Of a stretch of 33,456 nucleotides of DNA, positions 3,252 to 29,618 are shown piece after piece. The notes under the pieces were generated by a model that did not search any database, was not told the origin of the DNA, and worked only from the letters and a program-made list of their open reading frames with translations. The stretch covers positions 1 through 33,456 of the forward strand of contig CAAEPN010000005.1 of NCBI GenBank assembly GCA_900757905.1, in the 5' to 3' direction. The position numbers and the translations under genes are program-made. Every line of letters starts with the position of its first letter. Positions within the stretch are counted from its first letter, which is position 1. This stretch comes from Clostridia bacterium (GTDB lineage: Bacteria > Bacillota > Clostridia > Oscillospirales > CAG-382).

Positions 3252-3280
3252 TTGACAATACAGATTGATAAAGATATAAT
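3252..3280 (+). promoter_or_regulatory. Consensus sigma-A promoter for the DeoR gene
   Basis: TTGACA (3252-3257), a 17-nt spacer, then TATAAT (3275-3280), about 80 nt upstream of the ATG at 3359. Confidence 0.6.
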
Positions 3281-3358: not shown

Positions 3359-4057
3359 ATGAACAAAGACCGCGAAAAGAGTATTTTAGAAATCGTCATA
3401 AAGGAAAAGACCGTCACGGTAAAAGACCTTGCACGCCGGTTATACGCAAGCGAGCCGTCCATCCGCCGGGACTTGTGCAGCTTAGAAAAGCAAAAGCTCT
3501 TGCGGCGCACGCACGGCGGCGCGGTTTTGGACGAAAACGCGCTGTCGGAGATCAAGGTACCCTTTCTGATACGGGAGCTTGAAAAAAGCGATGAGAAAAT
3601 TACGATCGCACGCAAAGCGGCGGCTTTCGTACCGGACGGCAGCATTGTGTTTTTAGACGCCTCCACAAGCGCCTATGTGATGATTCCGTTTCTCGCCGAA
3701 AAAAGGAATTTGATCGTTATCACCAACGGCGTCAAGGCTCTCGCCAAGTTAAGCGAGAACCACATCACCTGTATCGGCACAGGCGGTAATGTCGTTCATT
3801 CCTGTCTTGCCTTTGTGGGAGAGGACGCACTTCGGACGATTGCCGAATACAACGCGGATTTTTGCTTTTTCTCCTGCCGTGGGTTTTCCGAGGACGGGAA
3901 GATCACCGACATCGCACAATCCGAAAACGCAGTAAGGCGCAAGATGATTGAACACGCCAAAAGCTCTTACCTGCTCTGCACCAGCGATAAGATCGGCAAG
4001 ACCTGCTACCACAATCTCTGCACAGCAGACGACATTACCGGCATTATCCAGGCATAA
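3359..4057 (+). CDS. DeoR-family transcriptional regulator
   Basis: N-terminal wHTH (ILEIVIKEKTVTVKDLARRLYASEPSIRRDLCSLEKQKLLRRTHGGA) followed by a DeoR-C sugar-phosphate sensor-like domain. The gene is divergent from the GDPD operon. Confidence 0.9.
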   Translation: MNKDREKSILEIVIKEKTVTVKDLARRLYASEPSIRRDLCSLEKQKLLRRTHGGAVLDENALSEIKVPFLIRELEKSDEKITIARKAAAFVPDGSIVFLDASTSAYVMIPFLAEKRNLIVITNGVKALAKLSENHITCIGTGGNVVHSCLAFVGEDALRTIAEYNADFCFFSCRGFSEDGKITDIAQSENAVRRKMIEHAKSSYLLCTSDKIGKTCYHNLCTADDITGIIQA

Positions 4058-6710: not shown

Positions 6711-8364
6711 TCATATACCCTCCCTCCATAGCGGAGACCGCAAGCGTTTGATATACGCCTAAAATACCGCCGGCTTTCCGGAAAACGTGCTTCGGCGTAT
6801 TCTTCTTTCTCTCTTCAAAATCCACGCCGACCGCATCAAGCGTTCTGTTTTCGATATCGATGCGGATAAGGTCGCCGTCCTGTATCAGACCGATGTTGCC
6901 GCCCTCAGCCGCTTCGGGCGAAATATGTCCGATGCAAGGGCCTTTGCTTGCGCCTGAAAAGCGTCCGTCCGTGATAATGGCCGTACTGGAAACCAAATTT
7001 TTATCCGCGCACAAGGCTTCGGTCGTGTAAAACATTTCCGGCATTCCGCTTCCCTTTGGGCCCGCATAGCGGATAACGATACAGTCGCCGGGCCGTATCT
7101 TGCCGTCGATGATAGCGCTGCGTGCCGACAGTTCATCGTCGAATACGCGCGCCCTGCCTTCGAAATACCGCATATTTTCGGGAAGTCCCGTATATTTGAC
7201 GACCGCGCCCTTTTGGGCAATATTGCCTTTTAAGACGGCAATCGCTCCTTTCGGCACTATTTCGTGGATGATATCCTCCGGCTTTAACTTGTAATTGGAT
7301 AAATAGCCGCGATACGGCTTTAATGCATATTCCGCTCTTTCGAGGTTTTCACCGAGCGTTTTTCCCGTGACCGTGAGAACGTCTAACTTCAGCTTGTCCT
7401 TTAGCTTTAACATGATAGCCGGAACACCGCCGGCATACCACAGCATTTCCGTCGTGTGCTTTCCGACCGGACGGGTATCCGCCAAAAACGGGATATCCCG
7501 ATGAAGTCTGTCAAATAACTCCATATCAAGCTCGATTCCGGCTTCATGCGCAATCGCCGGTAAATGTAACAGCGCGTTCGTGCTGCCGCCGACCGCACCG
7601 TGAATCACAATGGCGTTGTAAAACGCGTCCTCGTTCAGAATGTCCCTCACACGGAGCTTTTTTTCGGCAAGAGCTGCCACAGCCTTGCCGGAGGCCTTGG
7701 CAATATTATCGATAAATTTCATATTGGCCGGCGCTAAAGCGGAATGCGGCAGCGCAAGTCCGAGCGCTTCGCTTAAGACCTGCATGGTAGCCGCCGTTCC
7801 CATAAACTGGCAAGCGCCGCAGGACGGGCAGGCATCGGCCTGACATTGGGAATATTCTTCTTTTGTCATGTCGCCTTTGCGGTATTTGACGCTGACATTG
7901 CCGATCTGCTCCAGCGTAAAGCCGTTGGCCGCCGCCGGCATAACGCCGCCCGGCACATGAATCGCCGGAATGTTTAATCTTGCCATGGCCATGAGGTGTG
8001 CCGGCACGCTCTTGTCGCAGCTCGAGATCAAGAGCATTCCGTCAAAAACGCTCGCTTTGGCATGAATCTCCGTCATGCCGACAATGATCTCACGGGACAC
8101 GAGCGAATAGTTCATGCCGTCATGCCCTTGAGCAATGCCGTCACACATATCGGTCACCGTGTAATGCGACGGCTTGGCGCCGGCATATTTAACGCCGTCG
8201 TCCGCCATTTTGGCAAGCCTTGCCAAATGCACGCTTCCCGGATGACTGTCTCCGTAGGTGGTATCGATCAAAATCTGCTTTCGTCCGATATCCTCGCTGT
8301 CCCAATCCATGCCTTGGCGTAACGCGTCGATCTCCGGCGCCATATCCTTGATATCCATGCTCAT
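6703..8364 (-). CDS. IlvD/Edd-family sugar-acid dehydratase
   Basis: Track ORF 6703..8532 trimmed to the ATG at 8364 (MSMDIKDMAPEIDALRQG) after AAGGAGAG. An ATGA overlap with the aldolase stop supports this start. Family motifs SSCDKSVPAHLMA and CPSCGACQFMGTAATMQ are present. Confidence 0.9.
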   Translation of the reverse strand: MSMDIKDMAPEIDALRQGMDWDSEDIGRKQILIDTTYGDSHPGSVHLARLAKMADDGVKYAGAKPSHYTVTDMCDGIAQGHDGMNYSLVSREIIVGMTEIHAKASVFDGMLLISSCDKSVPAHLMAMARLNIPAIHVPGGVMPAAANGFTLEQIGNVSVKYRKGDMTKEEYSQCQADACPSCGACQFMGTAATMQVLSEALGLALPHSALAPANMKFIDNIAKASGKAVAALAEKKLRVRDILNEDAFYNAIVIHGAVGGSTNALLHLPAIAHEAGIELDMELFDRLHRDIPFLADTRPVGKHTTEMLWYAGGVPAIMLKLKDKLKLDVLTVTGKTLGENLERAEYALKPYRGYLSNYKLKPEDIIHEIVPKGAIAVLKGNIAQKGAVVKYTGLPENMRYFEGRARVFDDELSARSAIIDGKIRPGDCIVIRYAGPKGSGMPEMFYTTEALCADKNLVSSTAIITDGRFSGASKGPCIGHISPEAAEGGNIGLIQDGDLIRIDIENRTLDAVGVDFEERKKNTPKHVFRKAGGILGVYQTLAVSAMEGGYMNV

Positions 8365-10353: not shown

Positions 10354-10435
10354 TTCATTTAATCGCTTGCCGTGTACTTTAGCCGAAAAAAAGATGAATG
10401 CAGATTTCAGCTATACCTGCGGTGCAGGTATTCGC

Positions 10436-10464
10436 TTGACAAAACGTGCTGTATACGATATAAT
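10436..10464 (+). promoter_or_regulatory. Perfect consensus sigma-A promoter of the low-GC two-gene island
   Basis: TTGACA (10436-10441), a 17-nt spacer, then TATAAT (10459-10464). An 8-bp-stem hairpin ATACCTGC-GGT-GCAGGTAT (10413-10431) sits immediately upstream. Confidence 0.65.
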
Positions 10465-10525
10465 GCTGATGTCAGTACTCTTTACACCAAATCGTTTTTT
10501 ACGCTATGGGACGAGGTAACAATTT

Positions 10526-10846
10526 ATGAATCGCTATCAAAACATAATTAAGTACATACCTTTTTTCAATATAATTTGTGTTTTCCAATTGCTTGTCTGC
10601 CTTTTAAAAAACTCATTTTATATCCACGCCAAAGAAAAATACAGTGCCCTTTTTCGGCCAATGCTGGTATTACTCGGAATCAACATTCCGGTCATAATTG
10701 CCCGATATTATTTGACGAATGCAACTATTTTATACATCGTGAATTTCTTAGATGCTTTGATTTCTTTGTATGTTTGGGCCGAGCTATGCATAAGAGAGCA
10801 AAAACGCATTGAGGAGTTCAGTAAACAGTGTAAAACGACTCCGTGA
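10526..10846 (+). CDS. Small hypothetical membrane protein (about 3 TM segments, charged C-terminal tail)
   Basis: GAGGT RBS 8 nt before the ATG. Hydrophobic stretches IPFFNIICVFQLLVCLL, PMLVLLGINIPVIIARYYL and ILYIVNFLDALISLYVWAELCI, then REQKRIEEFSKQCKTTP. I recognise no family. Confidence 0.6.
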   Translation: MNRYQNIIKYIPFFNIICVFQLLVCLLKNSFYIHAKEKYSALFRPMLVLLGINIPVIIARYYLTNATILYIVNFLDALISLYVWAELCIREQKRIEEFSKQCKTTP

Positions 10847-10865
10847 TATGCTTTGAGGAGGCATT

Positions 10866-11888
10866 ATGAATCACTTTACAACCAAATTAGCCAACTCCTT
10901 GAATTTTTTGAACCATGTAGCAGCCTGCAAGAATTACAGTGAGTACGCGGAAACAGTTGTACACAGTTCCTTTTATCAAACTCTATTGGATCGTTACATG
11001 AAGAACGACGCTTATTTCAAGGATGAAGTTCAAAAAATGCTTGACCCGGTAACCGGCTTGGTTTCGGAAAAAGACTTTGAAAAAATAAAGGAGTATGCCG
11101 CTTGCTGCCGCGGAATGCAGAAACAGGCGGAAGAGGAGGCGTTGGAGGAAATCGAAGACCTGAAACACAGCCCCAATGCCGATATAAGGCAGCTTGCCGA
11201 ATGCGCCGAGGACTGGTTTTATGATATGAAGATAACGCGCTGTACAGTGGATTCGGAAAACGTGGTTGATCTTGCTATTCCAAGCGATTGCGGCACAAAA
11301 CAATGCGTCATGCAGTTCCGGAACATTGTCCCATTAAACGAAGAAAAAATCGAACAATGTACCGGCTGTGTGGTAACGGAAATTGAGTTTCGGAAAACCG
11401 ATGACGGTTCTTATACATTGGAGCTTGACTTGGTTAACAGTGCAAAAGGAAAACTCATGACGGTCAGATTTGAATTCAAAGATATTCATGTGGAGATTTT
11501 GCCGTATAAACCGGTTGATCCATGGGATAAATATGACCAAAGTTCCAATGATAATATACGGAAACTCGCGGAATGTGCGCAAAGTTGGTTTGTCGGAGCC
11601 GAAATTACTTATTTTGCTGAAAGTCCAAAAAACGATGTTTCTTTTGTTTTATCCGCGCGCGGCGGCAAGAAAAAATGTCGGCTGAAATTCCGAAACCGTG
11701 AACCGTTGGACAAGAATTTGATTTTAAAATGCGTAGGGAATCAAGTGTTTTCTCCCTCACTTTCCGAGAATGAAGCGGGTTACTATGAATTGAAATTTCT
11801 TGCATGGAACGAGTGCAAAATACCGGTAGAACCGGTATCTTCTTGGAAATTTGAGTTCAAAAATATCTTGGTTGACATCATGGGATGA
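10866..11888 (+). CDS. Hypothetical cytoplasmic protein with two tandem ~110-aa repeats
   Basis: GAGGAGG RBS. Repeat 1 begins DIRQLAECAEDWF, contains KQCVMQFRN and ends RFEFKDIHVEIL. Repeat 2 begins NIRKLAECAQSWF, contains KKCRLKFRN and ends KFEFKNILVDIM. No signal peptide and no catalytic motif I recognise. Confidence 0.75.
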   Translation: MNHFTTKLANSLNFLNHVAACKNYSEYAETVVHSSFYQTLLDRYMKNDAYFKDEVQKMLDPVTGLVSEKDFEKIKEYAACCRGMQKQAEEEALEEIEDLKHSPNADIRQLAECAEDWFYDMKITRCTVDSENVVDLAIPSDCGTKQCVMQFRNIVPLNEEKIEQCTGCVVTEIEFRKTDDGSYTLELDLVNSAKGKLMTVRFEFKDIHVEILPYKPVDPWDKYDQSSNDNIRKLAECAQSWFVGAEITYFAESPKNDVSFVLSARGGKKKCRLKFRNREPLDKNLILKCVGNQVFSPSLSENEAGYYELKFLAWNECKIPVEPVSSWKFEFKNILVDIMG

Positions 11889-11927
11889 ATGCTTCACATA
11901 GTATCAAATTCCAATATTACAAGAAAA

Positions 11928-11966
11928 GCGCAGTCTACTTTTTTTCGCAGACTGCGCTTTTTTTGC
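11928..11966. terminator. Bidirectional intrinsic terminator between the island and the his operon
   Basis: AGCGCAGTCT (11928-11937) pairs with AGACTGCGCT (11950-11959). A T7 run follows and an A-run precedes. Confidence 0.7.
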
Positions 11967-12014: not shown

Positions 12015-12773
12015 TTAAAAGGTTTCGCATATGTTATTTATTCTTATATCGCCGAACCCAAAGCACAAATTTTCTGCACTGTGCGCGTCGCTGGACAAAA
12101 TAAACTTTCCGCCGAGACTTGCAATTTTCCTTATAAGATCTTCACCCGGATACGGCGTTTTTCGGTATCCGCGAGATACCGCACCGGTGTTTATCTCAAA
12201 CGGAACGCCATATTGCACAAGATCTTCGATCGCACGGTACGCGCATTCTTTGTACCGGTCATTGTTTTCATCAAAAAATCTTCCGCCCTCATTGAATTTT
12301 GATACAAGGTCAAAATGCCCAATGATATCGGCCCCCGTCTTCCCCACCACATGCGACACAAGCTGAAAATATTCCTTTGCCAGAGCATAATAATCGCCGC
12401 CGAACTTGTTTTCTGCAAGCGCCTTGAAATTTTCCGCACTCTCGTCCACCGAAAAGTATTCGCCGCCGATCTTGATATAATGCACCGAACCGATGACATA
12501 ATCGCAGCCGCTGTCCGCCGTATCGGAAAAATAGTCTTTTTCGACGCCTTTGAATATTTCGATCTTTCCGTGGTATTTTTCGCGCAGACGGTCGATTTCA
12601 TCACAAAAAGCGGTTTCATTTCCCTTTTTGATACAGCATTCCTCGTCAAACGGCACATACGAATGATAGACCAACCCGATTTTTCCCATATGAAGCTTTA
12701 TCGCCGCCAGAATCATTTCTTCGGGCGAATTTTTGCCGTCACAAAAACAGGTATGGACGTGAAAATCATTCAT
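12015..12773 (-). CDS. hisJ: Histidinol-phosphatase, PHP family
   Basis: Starts [20 protein letters not shown] (PHP metal-binding HxH), with later GHFD and SDAHS motifs. The start overlaps the hisIE stop (ATGA). Confidence 0.85.
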
Positions 12774-13429
12774 TTTGTCATTTTCTCCTGCTTCACCTTG
12801 TGGTCGATGACATTGCGCGACGCAAGCTCATACTGAATATCGCGAAGACTGATTCCCGTGTGCGCCATGAGCACCAAAACATGATAGCACAGGTCGGCTA
12901 TTTCGTAGATCGTTTCTTTTTTGTCCTCCGCTTTCGCCGCGATAATCACTTCGGTACTTTCCTCTCCCACTTTTTTGAGGATTTTGTCTAATCCTTTTTC
13001 AAAAAGATAGGTCGTGTACGACCCCTCTTTCATCTCTTTTTTGCGGTCAAGAAGAAGATTCATGAGCTTAGAAAGCGAAAATTCGGTCATCGTATCATCG
13101 TGACAAACCGTGTTGGTAAAGCAGCTTTCCGTACCGGTATGGCACGCAGGGCCATCCTTTTCCACAATAACGTTTAACGCGTCGTAATCGCAGTCTGCTG
13201 TAATCGATACAATATGCTGATAATTTCCGCTTGTTTCGCCCTTTGTCCAAAGCGTGTTTCTCGAACGGCTCCAAAAGCAGGTAAGGCCCTTTTCGATCGA
13301 CTTTTCAAGGCTTTCTCTGTTCATATACGCAAGCGTGAGCACATCTTTTGTGATGTTGTCGGTCACGATAGCCGGGATAAGCCCCTTTTCGTCAAATTTT
13401 AATTTGTTGATATCAAAATCACACTTCAT
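12770..13429 (-). CDS. hisI: Bifunctional phosphoribosyl-AMP cyclohydrolase / phosphoribosyl-ATP pyrophosphatase
   Basis: HisI half: [31 protein letters not shown]. HisE half: [30 protein letters not shown]. Confidence 0.95.
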
Positions 13430-24185: not shown

Positions 24186-24968
24186 TTACAGATGGCGTTC
24201 GAAAATATCCGGTACATTCAATTTATCCCGGCTGCCTATCTCAAAGCAGTTTCGCTTGATACCGATATACTTCCCGTCTGCGATGATATAATGGTCGATA
24301 AGGCGCACGGCAAGCGAGCCGAGCAACTCCCCGACCTCCACCGTCATGCTTTTATCCTCATACGACGCCGCAAGCGTGCCGCTGGGATGATTATGCGCCA
24401 AAACCGCATAGGCTGCCGATGAGGATACGGCGCTTGCCACGATCTTTTTGGTTTTGACCGGTGCAAGGTCGTCCGTGCCGTCCGAAATAACGACGCTGCG
24501 GTCGATACGGCCTTTTTTGTCGAGTAACAGAAGCATTAGCCGCTCGGTCTCAACGCCGGTATAGAGTTTAACGAGATAATCGCCGATCTGCTCAAACGAA
24601 TGAAACATCTCATTCGGGTCGCAGGCGGACGAAATGCGGCGATGACATTCAAACACAGTCTTTAAGAGCACGGCGGCATTTTCGCCGATACCGTCCACCT
24701 GCATAAGCTCCGCCGCCGACGCGGCAAACAGCTTATCGAGCCGTCCGAAGCGTTCGATAAGACGGTGCGCTATCGGATTGGTATCGCGCCGCGGAATGGC
24801 ATAATACAGCAGCATTTCCAAAAGCTCGTGATCCTGTAAGATCTCCGCGCCGGCGTCCAAAAAGCGAGCACGCATGCGTTCACGGTGTCTGGTGTGCGGA
24901 TTGGCCGCAGTTTTGGCGCTGTCCGGTTCAGGCTTTGTAAAATTTTGGGATGATAAATTCTTTTTCAT
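24186..24968 (-). CDS. radC: RadC-family JAB/MPN domain protein
   Basis: Track ORF trimmed to the ATG at 24968 (MKKNLSS). HhH region ELMQVDGIGENAAVLLKTV and JAMM motif LAHNHPSG. No obvious SD sequence. Confidence 0.85.
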   Translation of the reverse strand: MKKNLSSQNFTKPEPDSAKTAANPHTRHRERMRARFLDAGAEILQDHELLEMLLYYAIPRRDTNPIAHRLIERFGRLDKLFAASAAELMQVDGIGENAAVLLKTVFECHRRISSACDPNEMFHSFEQIGDYLVKLYTGVETERLMLLLLDKKGRIDRSVVISDGTDDLAPVKTKKIVASAVSSSAAYAVLAHNHPSGTLAASYEDKSMTVEVGELLGSLAVRLIDHYIIADGKYIGIKRNCFEIGSRDKLNVPDIFERHL

Positions 24969-25013
24969 AGCATTTAATCGACATTCAAATATGAATTTTA
25001 TGGAAACAACTGT

Positions 25014-25042
25014 ATGATAGCACGATTTGGATAAATTGTCAA
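25014..25042 (-). promoter_or_regulatory. Sigma-A promoter for radC (and probably the downstream SLH gene)
   Basis: On the minus strand: TTGACA (rc of 25037-25042), a 17-nt spacer, then TATCAT (rc of 25014-25019). Confidence 0.55.
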
Positions 25043-25070
25043 GAAGAGAAATCAAAAAATGCAGTTTGTC

Positions 25071-25099
25071 TTGACAAACAAGAAAAAACTGCGTATAAT
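25071..25099 (+). promoter_or_regulatory. Consensus sigma-A promoter for mntP
   Basis: TTGACA (25071-25076), a 17-nt spacer, then TATAAT (25094-25099). Confidence 0.65.
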
Positions 25100-25166
25100 A
25101 TTAAGACATGCTTTTGCATATGCTTTAGAAAAGATTCCTATAAATATAAACGGAGTTGTTGCAGCA

Positions 25167-25754
25167 ATGGGTATCATAGAATTATTGCTTCTCGCGGTCG
25201 GACTTTCCATGGACGCTTTTGCCGTATCGGTCTGTAAGGGACTGGCTACGCGACAGATAAAGTTCAAGCATTATCTCATTATCGGCGCGTGGTTCGGCGG
25301 TTTTCAGGCGCTTATGCCACTCACCGGTTATTTTTTGGGTACTTTGTTTGAAAAATATATTGTAAGATACGACCATTGGATCGCTTTCGGACTTCTTGTC
25401 TACATTGGCGGCAACATGATCCATGAGGCGCTTTCGAAGGACGAAGAGCCGTCGGACGCGTCGTTTGCCTTCAAGAACATGCTTCTTTTAGCACTTGCCA
25501 CGAGCATTGACGCGCTTGCAGTCGGTATAACGTTAGCGCTTCTTTCCGACGTGAATATTTGGTCGTCGATCGCCATTATCGGCACGACCACCTTTATCAT
25601 TTCCGCGATAGGCTTGAAGATCGGAAATGTTTTCGGAACGCGCTACAAATCGCGTGCCGAGCTTGTCGGCGGTATCATTCTGATTCTCATCGGCTGCAAT
25701 ATCCTGTTTGAGCACTTGGGCGTGCGGGAATTTTTAGCAAAGGCTTTTGCATAA
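25167..25754 (+). CDS. mntP: Manganese efflux pump MntP (DUF204 family)
   Basis: Track ORF trimmed to the ATG at 25167 ([22 protein letters not shown]). The second half-repeat [11 protein letters not shown] is present, and the whole protein is hydrophobic. Confidence 0.85.
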
Positions 25755-25759
25755 TTGTA

Positions 25760-25796
25760 AAAAGAGCGTTCTATACCAAGTATAGAACGCTCTTTT
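25760..25796. terminator. Bidirectional terminator between mntP and the toxin gene
   Basis: AAAAGAGCGTTCTATA-CCAAG-TATAGAACGCTCTTTT is a perfect 16-bp stem that includes the A and T runs. It overlaps the toxin stop codon. Confidence 0.8.
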
Positions 25797-26058
25797 AAAT
25801 TCCTAATATTTCCTTGTGATGCCCTATGTCTATTAACAGAATTATAATGCCATTTTCATAGCGCCACAAAATGCGAATATCCATGTTGACGCTCATTTCA
25901 AACACATTGTCAAGTCCCTTTACCTTTTTTGTACGAAGCGACGGGTGAAATGGATTTTGCATCAAAAGCTTTATTTTGTTTGCTGTTTGCTTTTGTTCTG
26001 CCGCAGACAGTTTTTTCAAATCCCTTTCAAATTCCTTTGTATATTTGAGCTTATACAT
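25795..26058 (-). CDS. RelE/StbE (ParE-RelE superfamily) type II toxin
   Basis: 87 aa. MYKLKYTKEFERDLKKLSAAEQKQTANKIKLLMQNPFHPSLRTKKVKG..IRILWRYENGIIILLIDIGHHKEI fits the RelE/StbE pattern. The start overlaps the antitoxin gene by 8 nt. Confidence 0.75.
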   Translation of the reverse strand: MYKLKYTKEFERDLKKLSAAEQKQTANKIKLLMQNPFHPSLRTKKVKGLDNVFEMSVNMDIRILWRYENGIIILLIDIGHHKEILGI

Positions 26059-26317
26059 TGTTTATGTCGATACCCATATCGGAAAACAAATCTTCAACGC
26101 TTTCAAACGCTGTCTTTTTTTTCGTATCGCTTTCCGACTCTTTCAGTATTTTTGCGATTTTTGCAATTTTGTCTTTTGGGTAGACAACGACAGGGCAAAG
26201 GAATATACCGCCGTCTTTCTCCATAATGTCGAACTTATCTCCCTCCGAAATACCGAGCTTCTTGATAATTTCAGCTGGTATGGTTATTTGGGAACGTCCT
26301 CTGATTTCCGCTAACAT
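26051..26317 (-). CDS. AbrB/MazE/SpoVT-type antitoxin
   Basis: ATG at 26317, 6 nt after AGAGGTG (the track start at 26326 is the GTG inside that RBS). SpoVT-AbrB motif RGRSQITIPAEIIKKLGISEGDKFDI and an acidic C-terminus. Confidence 0.75.
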   Translation of the reverse strand: MLAEIRGRSQITIPAEIIKKLGISEGDKFDIMEKDGGIFLCPVVVYPKDKIAKIAKILKESESDTKKKTAFESVEDLFSDMGIDINNV

Positions 26318-26367
26318 GAAAAGCACCTCTTTCGATATTTCTGATTTTCTGAATTTCTTATACTATT

Positions 26368-26396
26368 ATTATATGTTCTTTTTCCGAAAAAATCAA
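26368..26396 (-). promoter_or_regulatory. Sigma-A promoter of the TA operon
   Basis: On the minus strand: TTGATT (rc of 26391-26396), a 17-nt spacer, then TATAAT (rc of 26368-26373). The leader carries a direct repeat TCAGAAA x2 (rc of 26338-26344 and 26346-26352). Confidence 0.55.
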
Positions 26397-26455
26397 GTAA
26401 AAATCTTAAATTTCCTGAAATTTGAACATATAACTTTTTATTGTCCCGCCATTTT

Positions 26456-26484
26456 GCATATTCGCTTTCACTTCGGACATACTA
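26456..26484 (+). promoter_or_regulatory. Sporulation-sigma-type promoter (sigma-G/F-like; also fits sigma-E) for tepA
   Basis: GCATA (26456-26460), a 17-nt spacer, then CATACTA (26478-26484). Read another way it is CATATT-N15-CATACTAT. The consensus sequences are recalled from B. subtilis. No TTGACA/TATAAT pair is present here. Confidence 0.5.
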
Positions 26485-26514
26485 TCTAAAAACAAACCTT
26501 TCAGGAGCCGAAGT

Positions 26515-28259: not shown

Positions 28260-29573
28260 TTATTTCAATAACAGCATAGCCGCGCTGTAGTTATACGCGC
28301 CGTGCGGCTTATAGATCATGCCGATACCGGCATATTTTTTATCGGACAGCATAATGGCACGATGCTGACGGGAATTGCGCCAGCCATTCATACAGGTGAA
28401 GATATTCTTTGCTCCGGCACAGATGTTTTCGCCCCATGCCTGCCACTTGAAGCCGGGATTATACATCTGATACCGTGTAATCGCGCTTTCACCCGATGCG
28501 CCCGTGTGCGTCAACTCTCCGATATCGGCCATATAGGCAGCATGGTCGAGAGAGCAAGCCGCCGCCGCGTCGTCCCAAGTGAGTGCCGGGAGATGATTGG
28601 CGGCACGGAAAGCGTTGAGAATATCTAATCCCATGCGTGCGCCGCCGGCAAGCGCCGTATTGATATCGTGCAGATTGTAATAGCCGTCTGCTGCGGCATA
28701 GACCGCACATAACTGCTTTTCGATCGTATCATAATATTTATGCAGATTGACGTGCTCCGTGTGTACATATTCATACTGTCTGCCGTCTGCGGGAGCCGCC
28801 GCACCGTACTGCAAGCCCTCCGAGGTGGAAAAGCCCGGCGTATTGGTATAATACGCGCAGATAATACCGCCATCCGAAGCGATCGCAAGAAAAGCGTTCG
28901 GATTGGCATAAACATGCCACAAAAGACCGTTTTCTGCCGAGACCGAATAGGTCGGCAATCCGTAAAGGGCCACGAACGAATCGTAGGTCTGACCGATTGT
29001 GACAGTGCAGATACCAAGCGTCAGAGAATGTGTTTTTTCACGCGAATAAATGCCGGCCGTCTGCGTTTTTTCGTCCCATCCGACCGTCGCGTCGAGCGAT
29101 TCGGACACAGCGCGCAGGGGAACATACGTCACCTCACCCACCAAGATGGCTTTTGCCGGGATCTTTTTCTTTACGCCGTTGACCGTCATTTCATCCGAAT
29201 CGATGACAAGCGTTATATTTTTTCCGGCCGAGGTAATAAGAATGCTTTGCGTTTTCTCCACCCATTCGACCTTGCAGCCGAGGTTTTCCATGACCGCGCG
29301 AAGCGGAATCAACGTATAGTCGCCCAAAATAAAAGGCGCATAGGCAAACGACGGCGACACGCCGTTTATCTTGACGCTGACCTTTTCGAGGGCAGGCTCC
29401 GACGAGAAAATTGGCGTATTCTGAAGAACCGAGGAGAACGAATTTAGGGAAGCGGCGTTAACGCCTCCTGCAAATAGTGTCAAAGAAGCCGTAACAGAGA
29501 GGAAAAGAGCCGAAAGTGCGCCGAAACGTTTGTATTTTCCGCTTGGCTTTTGCGCAAAAAATTTCATGTGCAT
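28260..29573 (-). CDS. Secreted protein: copper-amine-oxidase-N-like (stalk) domain plus C-terminal CAP/SCP (YkwD-like) domain
   Basis: Start at the ATG at 29573 or 29567, after GAAAGGA; the track start at 29609 has no RBS. Signal peptide KRFGALSALFLSVTASLTLFAGGVNA. Stalk domain YTLIPLRAVMENLGCKVEWVEKTQ..TYVPLRAVSESLDATVGWDEKTQ. CAP domain LNAFRAANHLPALTWDD..HTGASGE..WRNSRQHRAIML. Confidence 0.8.
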   Translation of the reverse strand: MHMKFFAQKPSGKYKRFGALSALFLSVTASLTLFAGGVNAASLNSFSSVLQNTPIFSSEPALEKVSVKINGVSPSFAYAPFILGDYTLIPLRAVMENLGCKVEWVEKTQSILITSAGKNITLVIDSDEMTVNGVKKKIPAKAILVGEVTYVPLRAVSESLDATVGWDEKTQTAGIYSREKTHSLTLGICTVTIGQTYDSFVALYGLPTYSVSAENGLLWHVYANPNAFLAIASDGGIICAYYTNTPGFSTSEGLQYGAAAPADGRQYEYVHTEHVNLHKYYDTIEKQLCAVYAAADGYYNLHDINTALAGGARMGLDILNAFRAANHLPALTWDDAAAACSLDHAAYMADIGELTHTGASGESAITRYQMYNPGFKWQAWGENICAGAKNIFTCMNGWRNSRQHRAIMLSDKKYAGIGMIYKPHGAYNYSAAMLLLK

Positions 29574-29601
29574 GCGTATCCTTTCCCGATAATTTAAGCG
29601 A

Positions 29602-29618
29602 TACGGCATAAGCCGTTT
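29602..29618. repeat. 17-mer TACGGCATAAGCCGTTT (contains dyad ACGGC-ATAA-GCCGT), copy 1
   Basis: Exact repeat of 29826-29842. It lies in the predicted 5' leader of the CAP-domain gene. Confidence 0.8.

Follow-up and report, generated by a model that had tools for sequence, protein, structure and literature searches.

The polyimmunity loci described by Zhang, de Souza, Anantharaman, Iyer and Aravind in 2012 consist of genes in the same orientation with small spacers, without intervening toxin genes and with a content that varies between strains, and a role in pre-emptive protection against the toxins of non-kin was proposed for them; polyimmunity proteins carry tandem immunity domains in one polypeptide (PMC3482391). 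Here we analyzed positions 1 to 33,456 of contig CAAEPN010000005.1 from a Clostridia bacterium (assembly GCA_900757905.1; this whole stretch of 33,456 nucleotides (nt) is referred to as the window), in which a small island of two genes, encoding proteins of 106 and 340 amino acids (aa), lies between a catabolic cluster and the his operon. The island is probably a two-cassette polyimmunity mini-locus composed of orphan immunity genes of Rhs-type polymorphic toxin systems, and the predicted 340-aa product is best read as an immunity protein with tandem domains that derives from a family of Rhs immunity proteins. This interpretation was adopted because the context fits, namely the adjacency of relatives to Rhs genes, the occurrence in arrays and the variation between strains, while direct annotation gave none.

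Like polyimmunity loci, the island has genes that point in one direction, are tightly spaced (a gap of 19 nt between the open reading frames (ORFs)) and are not interrupted by a toxin gene; the arrays at loci L001, L015 and L003 of sister species resemble it in this. Its content varies between strains (two or three cassettes at this site), as it does in arrays of sister species, where loci L003 and L016 share their HAD and EamA flanks and differ in the cassettes between them. The 340-aa product has tandem domains, like polyimmunity proteins (PMC3482391), and its relatives are encoded directly after Rhs toxin genes. In contrast to the "extended" loci of four or more cassettes, only two are present here (three in some strains), the island has no adjacent recombinase and possesses its own consensus promoter, and its proteins match neither the roughly 90 Imm families nor any Pfam model (PMC3482391). 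A second comparison can be drawn to the orphan-immunity arrays for acquired interbacterial defense (AID) that gut Bacteroidales carry (10.1101/471110; PMC12247911), with which the island shares a gut host, putative orphan genes without a cognate toxin nearby, strain variability and an evolution faster than that of the flanks. It differs from them in its Gram-positive Clostridia host, in the Rhs-type toxins in place of Bacteroidales effectors of type VI secretion systems (T6SS), in that no mobile element or recombinase is associated with this site, and in that it is known from sequence alone.

The connection to toxins is provided by the relatives of the 340-aa protein. Among 1.84 billion representatives, its only distant relatives are proteins of 214-216 aa with a single repeat, which consist of the same N-terminal helical region and one beta domain. 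Two of them (P0022 and P0047, 214 aa) start 9 nt after the stop codon of an Rhs gene (L013 and L103) and are followed by another orphan Rhs cassette; in L103 the end of the Rhs gene encodes the Rhs core, a conserved linker and a C-terminal domain ending in …HGEKGNYYFHYHPKVKPHLHIW…. A further relative, imm216 of L014, starts 5 nt after the stop codon of a 556-aa Rhs gene (Rhs556) and is part of an array in which Rhs genes and small genes alternate. The gene caller assigned 157 aa to this protein; the true start at 7824 gives 216 aa, and the 216-aa form is on record as P0053. A position directly downstream of a toxin gene, on the same strand and with a short gap, was found at the level of the family (P0022, P0047 and the L014 protein), and the window copy itself does not stand beside a toxin gene. 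The layout in L013, L103 and L014, with Rhs core, DPxGL-like motif, variable C-terminal domain, immunity gene and next orphan Rhs cassette, corresponds to that of Rhs/RhsI pairs and orphan rhs-CT/immunity cassettes (Poole et al., 2011; PMC3150448), from which the window copy is set apart by the lack of a nearby Rhs partner and by a duplicated domain that is absent from the toxin-adjacent versions. If it is an immunity gene, it would therefore be either orphan or relocated.

The two Rhs C-terminal domains encoded upstream of the 214-aa relatives and of imm216 are homologous (52% identity, E 3e-49), as are the two proteins encoded downstream of them (34%, E 6e-39). L014 has further Rhs genes with other C-terminal domains, and the proteins encoded after these are unrelated. 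The putative toxin C-terminal domain and the downstream gene thus co-vary, which is the defining trait of toxin/immunity systems. Each of the three proteins encoded in the immunity position of the L014 Rhs array is homologous to a member of the arrays of the lineage studied here: imm204 to an array family of 200-206 aa (E 3e-40), imm208 to an array family of 213-217 aa (E 8e-36) and imm216 to the 340-aa protein (E 3e-24 for the N-terminal region and repeat 1, E 2e-4 for repeat 2). The 213-217-aa family also provides the third cassette at the window's own site in two contigs (L101 and L102).

Two further observations concern these Rhs loci. The Rhs C-terminal domain of about 150 aa (L014 7306-7815, L103 328-816 and L013 1-477) contains a hydrophobic helix and ends in a conserved His-rich stretch, HG..GYY(F/Y)HYHP..KPH.HIW. 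Searches with the L014 domain gave no match in Pfam or PDB and no homologs in the word index, and it is possibly a new toxin family. Moreover, the Rhs/immunity array of L014 adjoins two large serine recombinase genes (Resolvase/Recombinase/DUF4368, L014 1-2726) and may be located on a mobile element.

The 340-aa protein (10866-11888, + strand) was described as a soluble repeat protein in the original prediction, which was borne out: no hydrophobic segment, signal peptide or enzymatic domain was detected, and self-BLAST aligned residues 101-212 to residues 225-339 (35% identity, E 1e-21). Its N-terminal helical region (residues 1-100; 10866-11165, + strand), seen by alignment, BLASTP and in AlphaFold2 (AF2) helices, is common to the single-repeat relatives beside Rhs genes. 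Repeat 1 (residues 101-212; 11166-11501, + strand) forms one helix followed by seven beta-strands in the AF2 model and aligns to P0022 and to L014 imm216, and repeat 2 (residues 225-339; 11538-11882, + strand) is a tandem copy of the same domain according to self-BLAST, alignment and the second high-scoring segment pair of the imm216 comparison (E 2e-4). Both repeats can be aligned with the one domain that the toxin-adjacent relatives possess. Scans of Pfam, NCBIfam, PHROGs and PADLOC returned nothing meaningful, neither window protein matches any Pfam Imm family, and a sequence profile search of PDB gave nothing below E 0.1, which agrees with the earlier statement that neither protein can be assigned to a family. 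Homologs of the 340-aa protein are few: 11 clusters were found in 5.8 billion proteins, all at least 85% identical, and a full HMMER pass over the 1.84 billion representatives gave four matching clusters in all. A 5'-truncated copy of the gene without the N-terminal helical region (254 aa) is present at L004 9992-10756, and a cluster of 252-aa versions (P0010) exists as well; the L004 copy looks like a product of cassette decay or recombination.

The full-length AF2 model was poor (pLDDT 65, pTM 0.44) and its Foldseek matches were rejected as noise (TM-score ≤0.16). The model of residues 1-215 was confident (pLDDT 80, about 90 in the beta domain) and shows the helical N-terminal region ahead of one helix and a seven-stranded sheet. 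Foldseek gave no credible match for it in PDB or BFVD; the best PDB match, NFACT-N/PavA (TM-score 0.31, root-mean-square deviation 8.6 Å), was not considered real.

Within the species, the same arrangement of catabolic cluster, LacI gene, 106-aa gene, 340-aa gene, hisK and his operon was found in more than 20 contigs from many human-gut metagenomes, among them L107, whose sequence is the same as that of the window. Synteny of the island holds in all same-species contigs seen. In L101 and L102 a third cassette encoding a protein of 213-214 aa is located between the 340-aa gene and the terminator, so that this site holds two or three cassettes depending on the strain. Flanks of these contigs are 98-99% (L102) and 94-96% (L101) identical to the window. 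The indel is clean and lies exactly at the cassette junction between …TTCAC and ATAG… (11895-11898), where a microhomology (CAC) is present on either side; the 340-aa cassette is homologous to array copies up to 11897. The 340-aa gene diverges faster than its flanks (96.5% versus 98-99%, and 90.2% versus 94-96%). By tblastn, neither window protein matched phages or plasmids, and no prophage or defense-island context was seen around the island. The original prediction had regarded core, syntenic homologs of normal composition as speaking against acquisition; synteny was indeed observed in all same-species contigs, yet the number of cassettes varies.

In sister species, carried by uncultured Eubacteriales/Clostridiales gut metagenome-assembled genomes, close homologs of both cassettes belong to long arrays in which small genes follow one another in the same direction at short distances. 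The genes of the L001, L015 and L018 arrays come in the order 342-aa gene, RDD, DUF4279, 217-aa gene, 204-aa gene, gene of a 105-aa transmembrane (TM) protein and 104-aa gene. Homologs of the window genes are thereby about 2.2 kb apart and in the opposite order. DNA homology between window and arrays is limited to gene plus ribosome-binding site (RBS; 10513-10835 and 10845-11897), leaving the promoter and the terminator outside the cassettes, and the array copies lack the island promoter. Taken together, these comparisons show that cassettes, each consisting of a gene and its RBS, are exchanged between chromosomal sites and larger arrays within the lineage. The arrays contain DUF4279, which has been classed as immunity family FdL-Imm5 (PMC9424270), and a sub-threshold match to Barstar. 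In L004 the array surrounds the gene of a 511-aa Rhs-repeat protein with a Peptidase_C70/C39-like C-terminal domain. Other array members carry signal peptides, lipoboxes, Cu_amine_oxidN1 or DUF5104 domains.

Among sisters whose his operon is comparable, the nearest (L022 and L023; hisK 82%) lacks both the island and the LacI cluster beside hisK. A search for the empty site gave no clean result, the neighborhood of L022 and L023 beyond hisK being wholly different. When the window (12015-13429) was compared to L022 (5345-6768), HisIE was 97% identical (nonsynonymous substitution rate (dN) 0.022) and the adjacent HisK/PHP 82% (dN 0.108). This sharp change in divergence at the end of the his operon next to the island suggests a recombination boundary or relaxed constraint.

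If the polyimmunity interpretation is correct, the 340-aa protein would be a cytoplasmic protein in which an N-terminal helical region precedes two tandem helix-plus-beta-sheet domains. When competing Clostridia deliver Rhs toxins, it would bind and neutralize the C-terminal toxin domain of these, and its two domains could confer two specificities or a higher avidity, making it a "polyimmunity protein". The consensus promoter and the shared terminator would allow constitutive expression of the cassettes, so that the protein is present before an attack. Tentatively, and with slightly more doubt than conviction, we propose in addition that the 340-aa protein and its single-repeat relatives form an undescribed immunity family with a fold lacking a solved counterpart, that the partner is an undescribed Rhs C-terminal toxin domain with the above motif HG..GYY(F/Y)HYHP..KPH.HIW, and that the window copy may be a bivalent orphan kept on against the Rhs toxins of neighbors, as a Gram-positive counterpart of the Bacteroidales AID arrays.

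The anatomy of the island was largely as originally predicted. A sigma-70/SigA-type promoter, TTGACA-17-TATAAT (10436-10464, + strand), drives the island and matches the consensus at 12/12 positions; three such perfect sites are present in the window compared to 0 expected from 100 shuffles. Promoter hexamers and the entire leader are kept in the same-species contigs, and indels occur in the DNA further upstream. The 5' leader of 61 nt (10465-10525, + strand) contains the RBS GAGGT (10513-10517), and homology to the TM-cassette copies of the arrays begins at 10513. Cassette 1, the ORF of the 106-aa protein (10526-10846, + strand), is followed by the RBS GAGGAGG of the 340-aa gene (10855-10861, + strand), with homology to array copies beginning at about 10845, and by cassette 2, the 340-aa ORF. 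Both ORFs have the good RBSs claimed for them, and one promoter and one terminator enclose them. The "self-contained two-gene unit" is real as a transcription unit, but its genes are separate cassettes that are not neighbors elsewhere.

Transcription of the island and of the convergent hisK gene (encoding a PHP histidinol phosphatase) shares a bidirectional intrinsic terminator (11920-11965), identified by folding and conservation. The strong terminator of the original prediction was recovered as a hairpin that folds on both strands, with folding energies of -25.6 kcal/mol (+ strand, z -5.6) and -29.1 kcal/mol (- strand, z -5.9). The hairpin was missed by a consensus scan solely because its loop exceeds 8 nt. 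Between strains the hairpin is kept with a compensatory A-U to G-C change, and it remains after the last cassette in the three-cassette strains. An Rfam scan of the whole window gave no match.

With a GC content of 40.3% compared to the window mean of 49.0%, the island belongs to the lowest 1% among equal-sized windows, and its GC3 is low as well, in line with the reported compositional break. Recounting of the five 60-nt lines on which this had been based gave 21, 14, 23, 27 and 32; three of the hand counts were right and two (22 and 15) were one too high. The proposed horizontal acquisition also agrees with the data, as the island is deviant accessory DNA and not core, the same cassettes occupy other chromosomal sites in sister species, and the next sister lineage lacks the island. 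In the 340-aa gene the ratio of nonsynonymous to synonymous substitution rates (dN/dS) was 0.13-0.38 and in the TM gene 0.17-0.27, compared to 0-0.11 for the flanking his and LacI genes. Because these values show purifying selection, both ORFs are real genes; the flanks are under stronger purifying selection.

The hydropathy profile of the 106-aa protein contains three hydrophobic segments (about residues 7-27, 40-60 and 66-89), confirming the three-TM protein of the original prediction. Scans of Pfam, NCBIfam, PHROGs and PADLOC gave nothing meaningful, and its homologs (eight clusters in 5.8 billion proteins, all at least 72% identical) are restricted to its own lineage. In the arrays the TM gene always stands after a 204-206-aa gene and before a 104-aa gene, and in L016 and L017 it does so without a 340-aa gene alongside. 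It is a cassette in its own right, from the same arrays as the 340-aa gene. As a guess, and as the weakest part of the explanation, the 106-aa protein is tentatively regarded as a membrane-located immunity or accessory protein. A possible lead to its role is the link between imm204 and the C-terminal domain of Rhs747 (L014 3198-5441): the C-terminal 150 aa or so of Rhs747 are glycine-rich and hydrophobic and resemble a membrane-inserting domain, imm204 follows Rhs747, and imm204 homologs in the window's lineage always precede the 105-106-aa TM protein. A weak tblastn match of the TM protein inside L014 imm204 was out of frame and was discarded as spurious.

Several observations weigh against the polyimmunity interpretation. 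No Rhs repeat, toxin gene or toxin C-terminal domain was found in the 33-kb window or within ±10 kb of the same-species loci. Close homologs of the 340-aa protein never stand directly after a toxin gene, and the L004 copy, which lies 3.5 kb and four genes downstream of the toxin gene, is 5'-truncated. The link to the toxin-adjacent genes amounts to 25-34% identity, and Foldseek gave no structural match to any solved immunity protein. No relative of the TM protein was found beside a toxin gene in the neighborhoods examined, many array neighbors are lipoproteins or membrane/envelope proteins without an assigned role, and the island is fixed in the species (all contigs seen), unlike a freshly acquired element. 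A rival reading is that the 340-aa protein would be a cognate immunity protein whose toxin, Rhs or other, is encoded elsewhere in the genome and whose gene was relocated beside the his operon. Presence of the island in every same-species contig examined, the strong, constitutive consensus promoter and the purifying selection would all be compatible with this, and inspection around the island covered ±10 kb. However, cognate immunity genes are normally found directly downstream of the toxin, as in L013, L103 and L014, and no toxin gene is present in the 33-kb window or its flanks, which makes such a relocation unlikely. Less probable still is that the arrays consist of lineage-specific accessory genes with some other role, such as envelope, sporulation or niche functions, and that the 340-aa protein was co-opted away from immunity so that its similarity to toxin-adjacent proteins reflects ancestry only. 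The many array members with signal peptides, lipoboxes, Cu_amine_oxidN1 and DUF5104, the location of the L001 and L015 arrays after an ECF sigma/DUF4367 pair and the lack of close homologs directly beside a toxin gene point in this direction. This is countered by the homology of three separate array families to three immunity-position genes of one Rhs array, by the Rhs toxin gene embedded in the L004 array and by the DUF4279 and Barstar-like members.

The original prediction had suggested an abortive-infection or defense pair, an immunity module or a holin-like cassette. Of these, the immunity module fits, although as immunity to interbacterial Rhs toxins and not to phage. An anti-phage pair of membrane effector and soluble sensor would be suggested by the generic architecture and the low GC content only, and we consider it very improbable: the PADLOC run gave no match, a defense-island, prophage, phage or plasmid context was not found, and the relatives are tied to Rhs toxins. 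Moreover, the pairing of membrane and soluble protein did not hold in the neighborhood comparison, in which the two genes are non-adjacent and in reversed order in other genomes, with the TM gene after the 204-206-aa gene and about 2.2 kb from the 340-aa gene. We give hardly any credence to a holin-like cassette for lysis or to a small membrane toxin and a soluble antidote forming a type II toxin-antitoxin pair. The small three-TM protein is indeed encoded upstream of a soluble protein, but there was no endolysin or lysin gene nearby, no PHROG match at E<0.01 and no phage context, and the pair is not conserved, the TM gene persisting alone in the arrays L016 and L017.

Some features outside the island were also recorded. 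The large arrays of L001 (2856-4191) and L015 (1-856) start just downstream of genes for an extracytoplasmic function (ECF)-type sigma factor and a DUF4367 protein, which may be an anti-sigma factor; unlike the island with its consensus promoter, these arrays are possibly regulated. At 28260-29609 (- strand) the window encodes a secreted protein that has Cu_amine_oxidN1 and CAP domains, and Cu_amine_oxidN1 also occurs in array members of sister species (L001 5950-6879). The second perfect TTGACA-17-TATAAT site of the window (25071-25099) is at the start of the ORF called for an MntP manganese-efflux gene (25059-25754), within the stretch of lowest GC content (about 24950-26500). By Rfam, no Mn (yybP-ykoY) riboswitch was detected near this gene or elsewhere in the window. 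The third perfect site (3252-3280) lies upstream of a gene for a DeoR-family regulator (3359-4057).

The locus does not indicate a new kind of system, and its bearing is on antagonism in the gut microbiome. The novelty lies in the families, an immunity family and a partner toxin domain that would both be outside Pfam; the way of working is already known. Much work exists on the orphan immunity arrays of gut Bacteroidales, which counter T6SS effectors, and hardly any on those of the abundant, mostly uncultured gut Clostridia. For the latter, the locus offers a candidate toxin/immunity pair, consisting of the Rhs C-terminal domain with the His-rich motif and the 216-aa putative immunity protein, together with a natural tandem-domain derivative of this protein, and it illustrates cleanly how a fixed site in the chromosome gains or loses a cassette. 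In addition, it provides a likely function for several unassigned protein families that recur in human-gut metagenomes.

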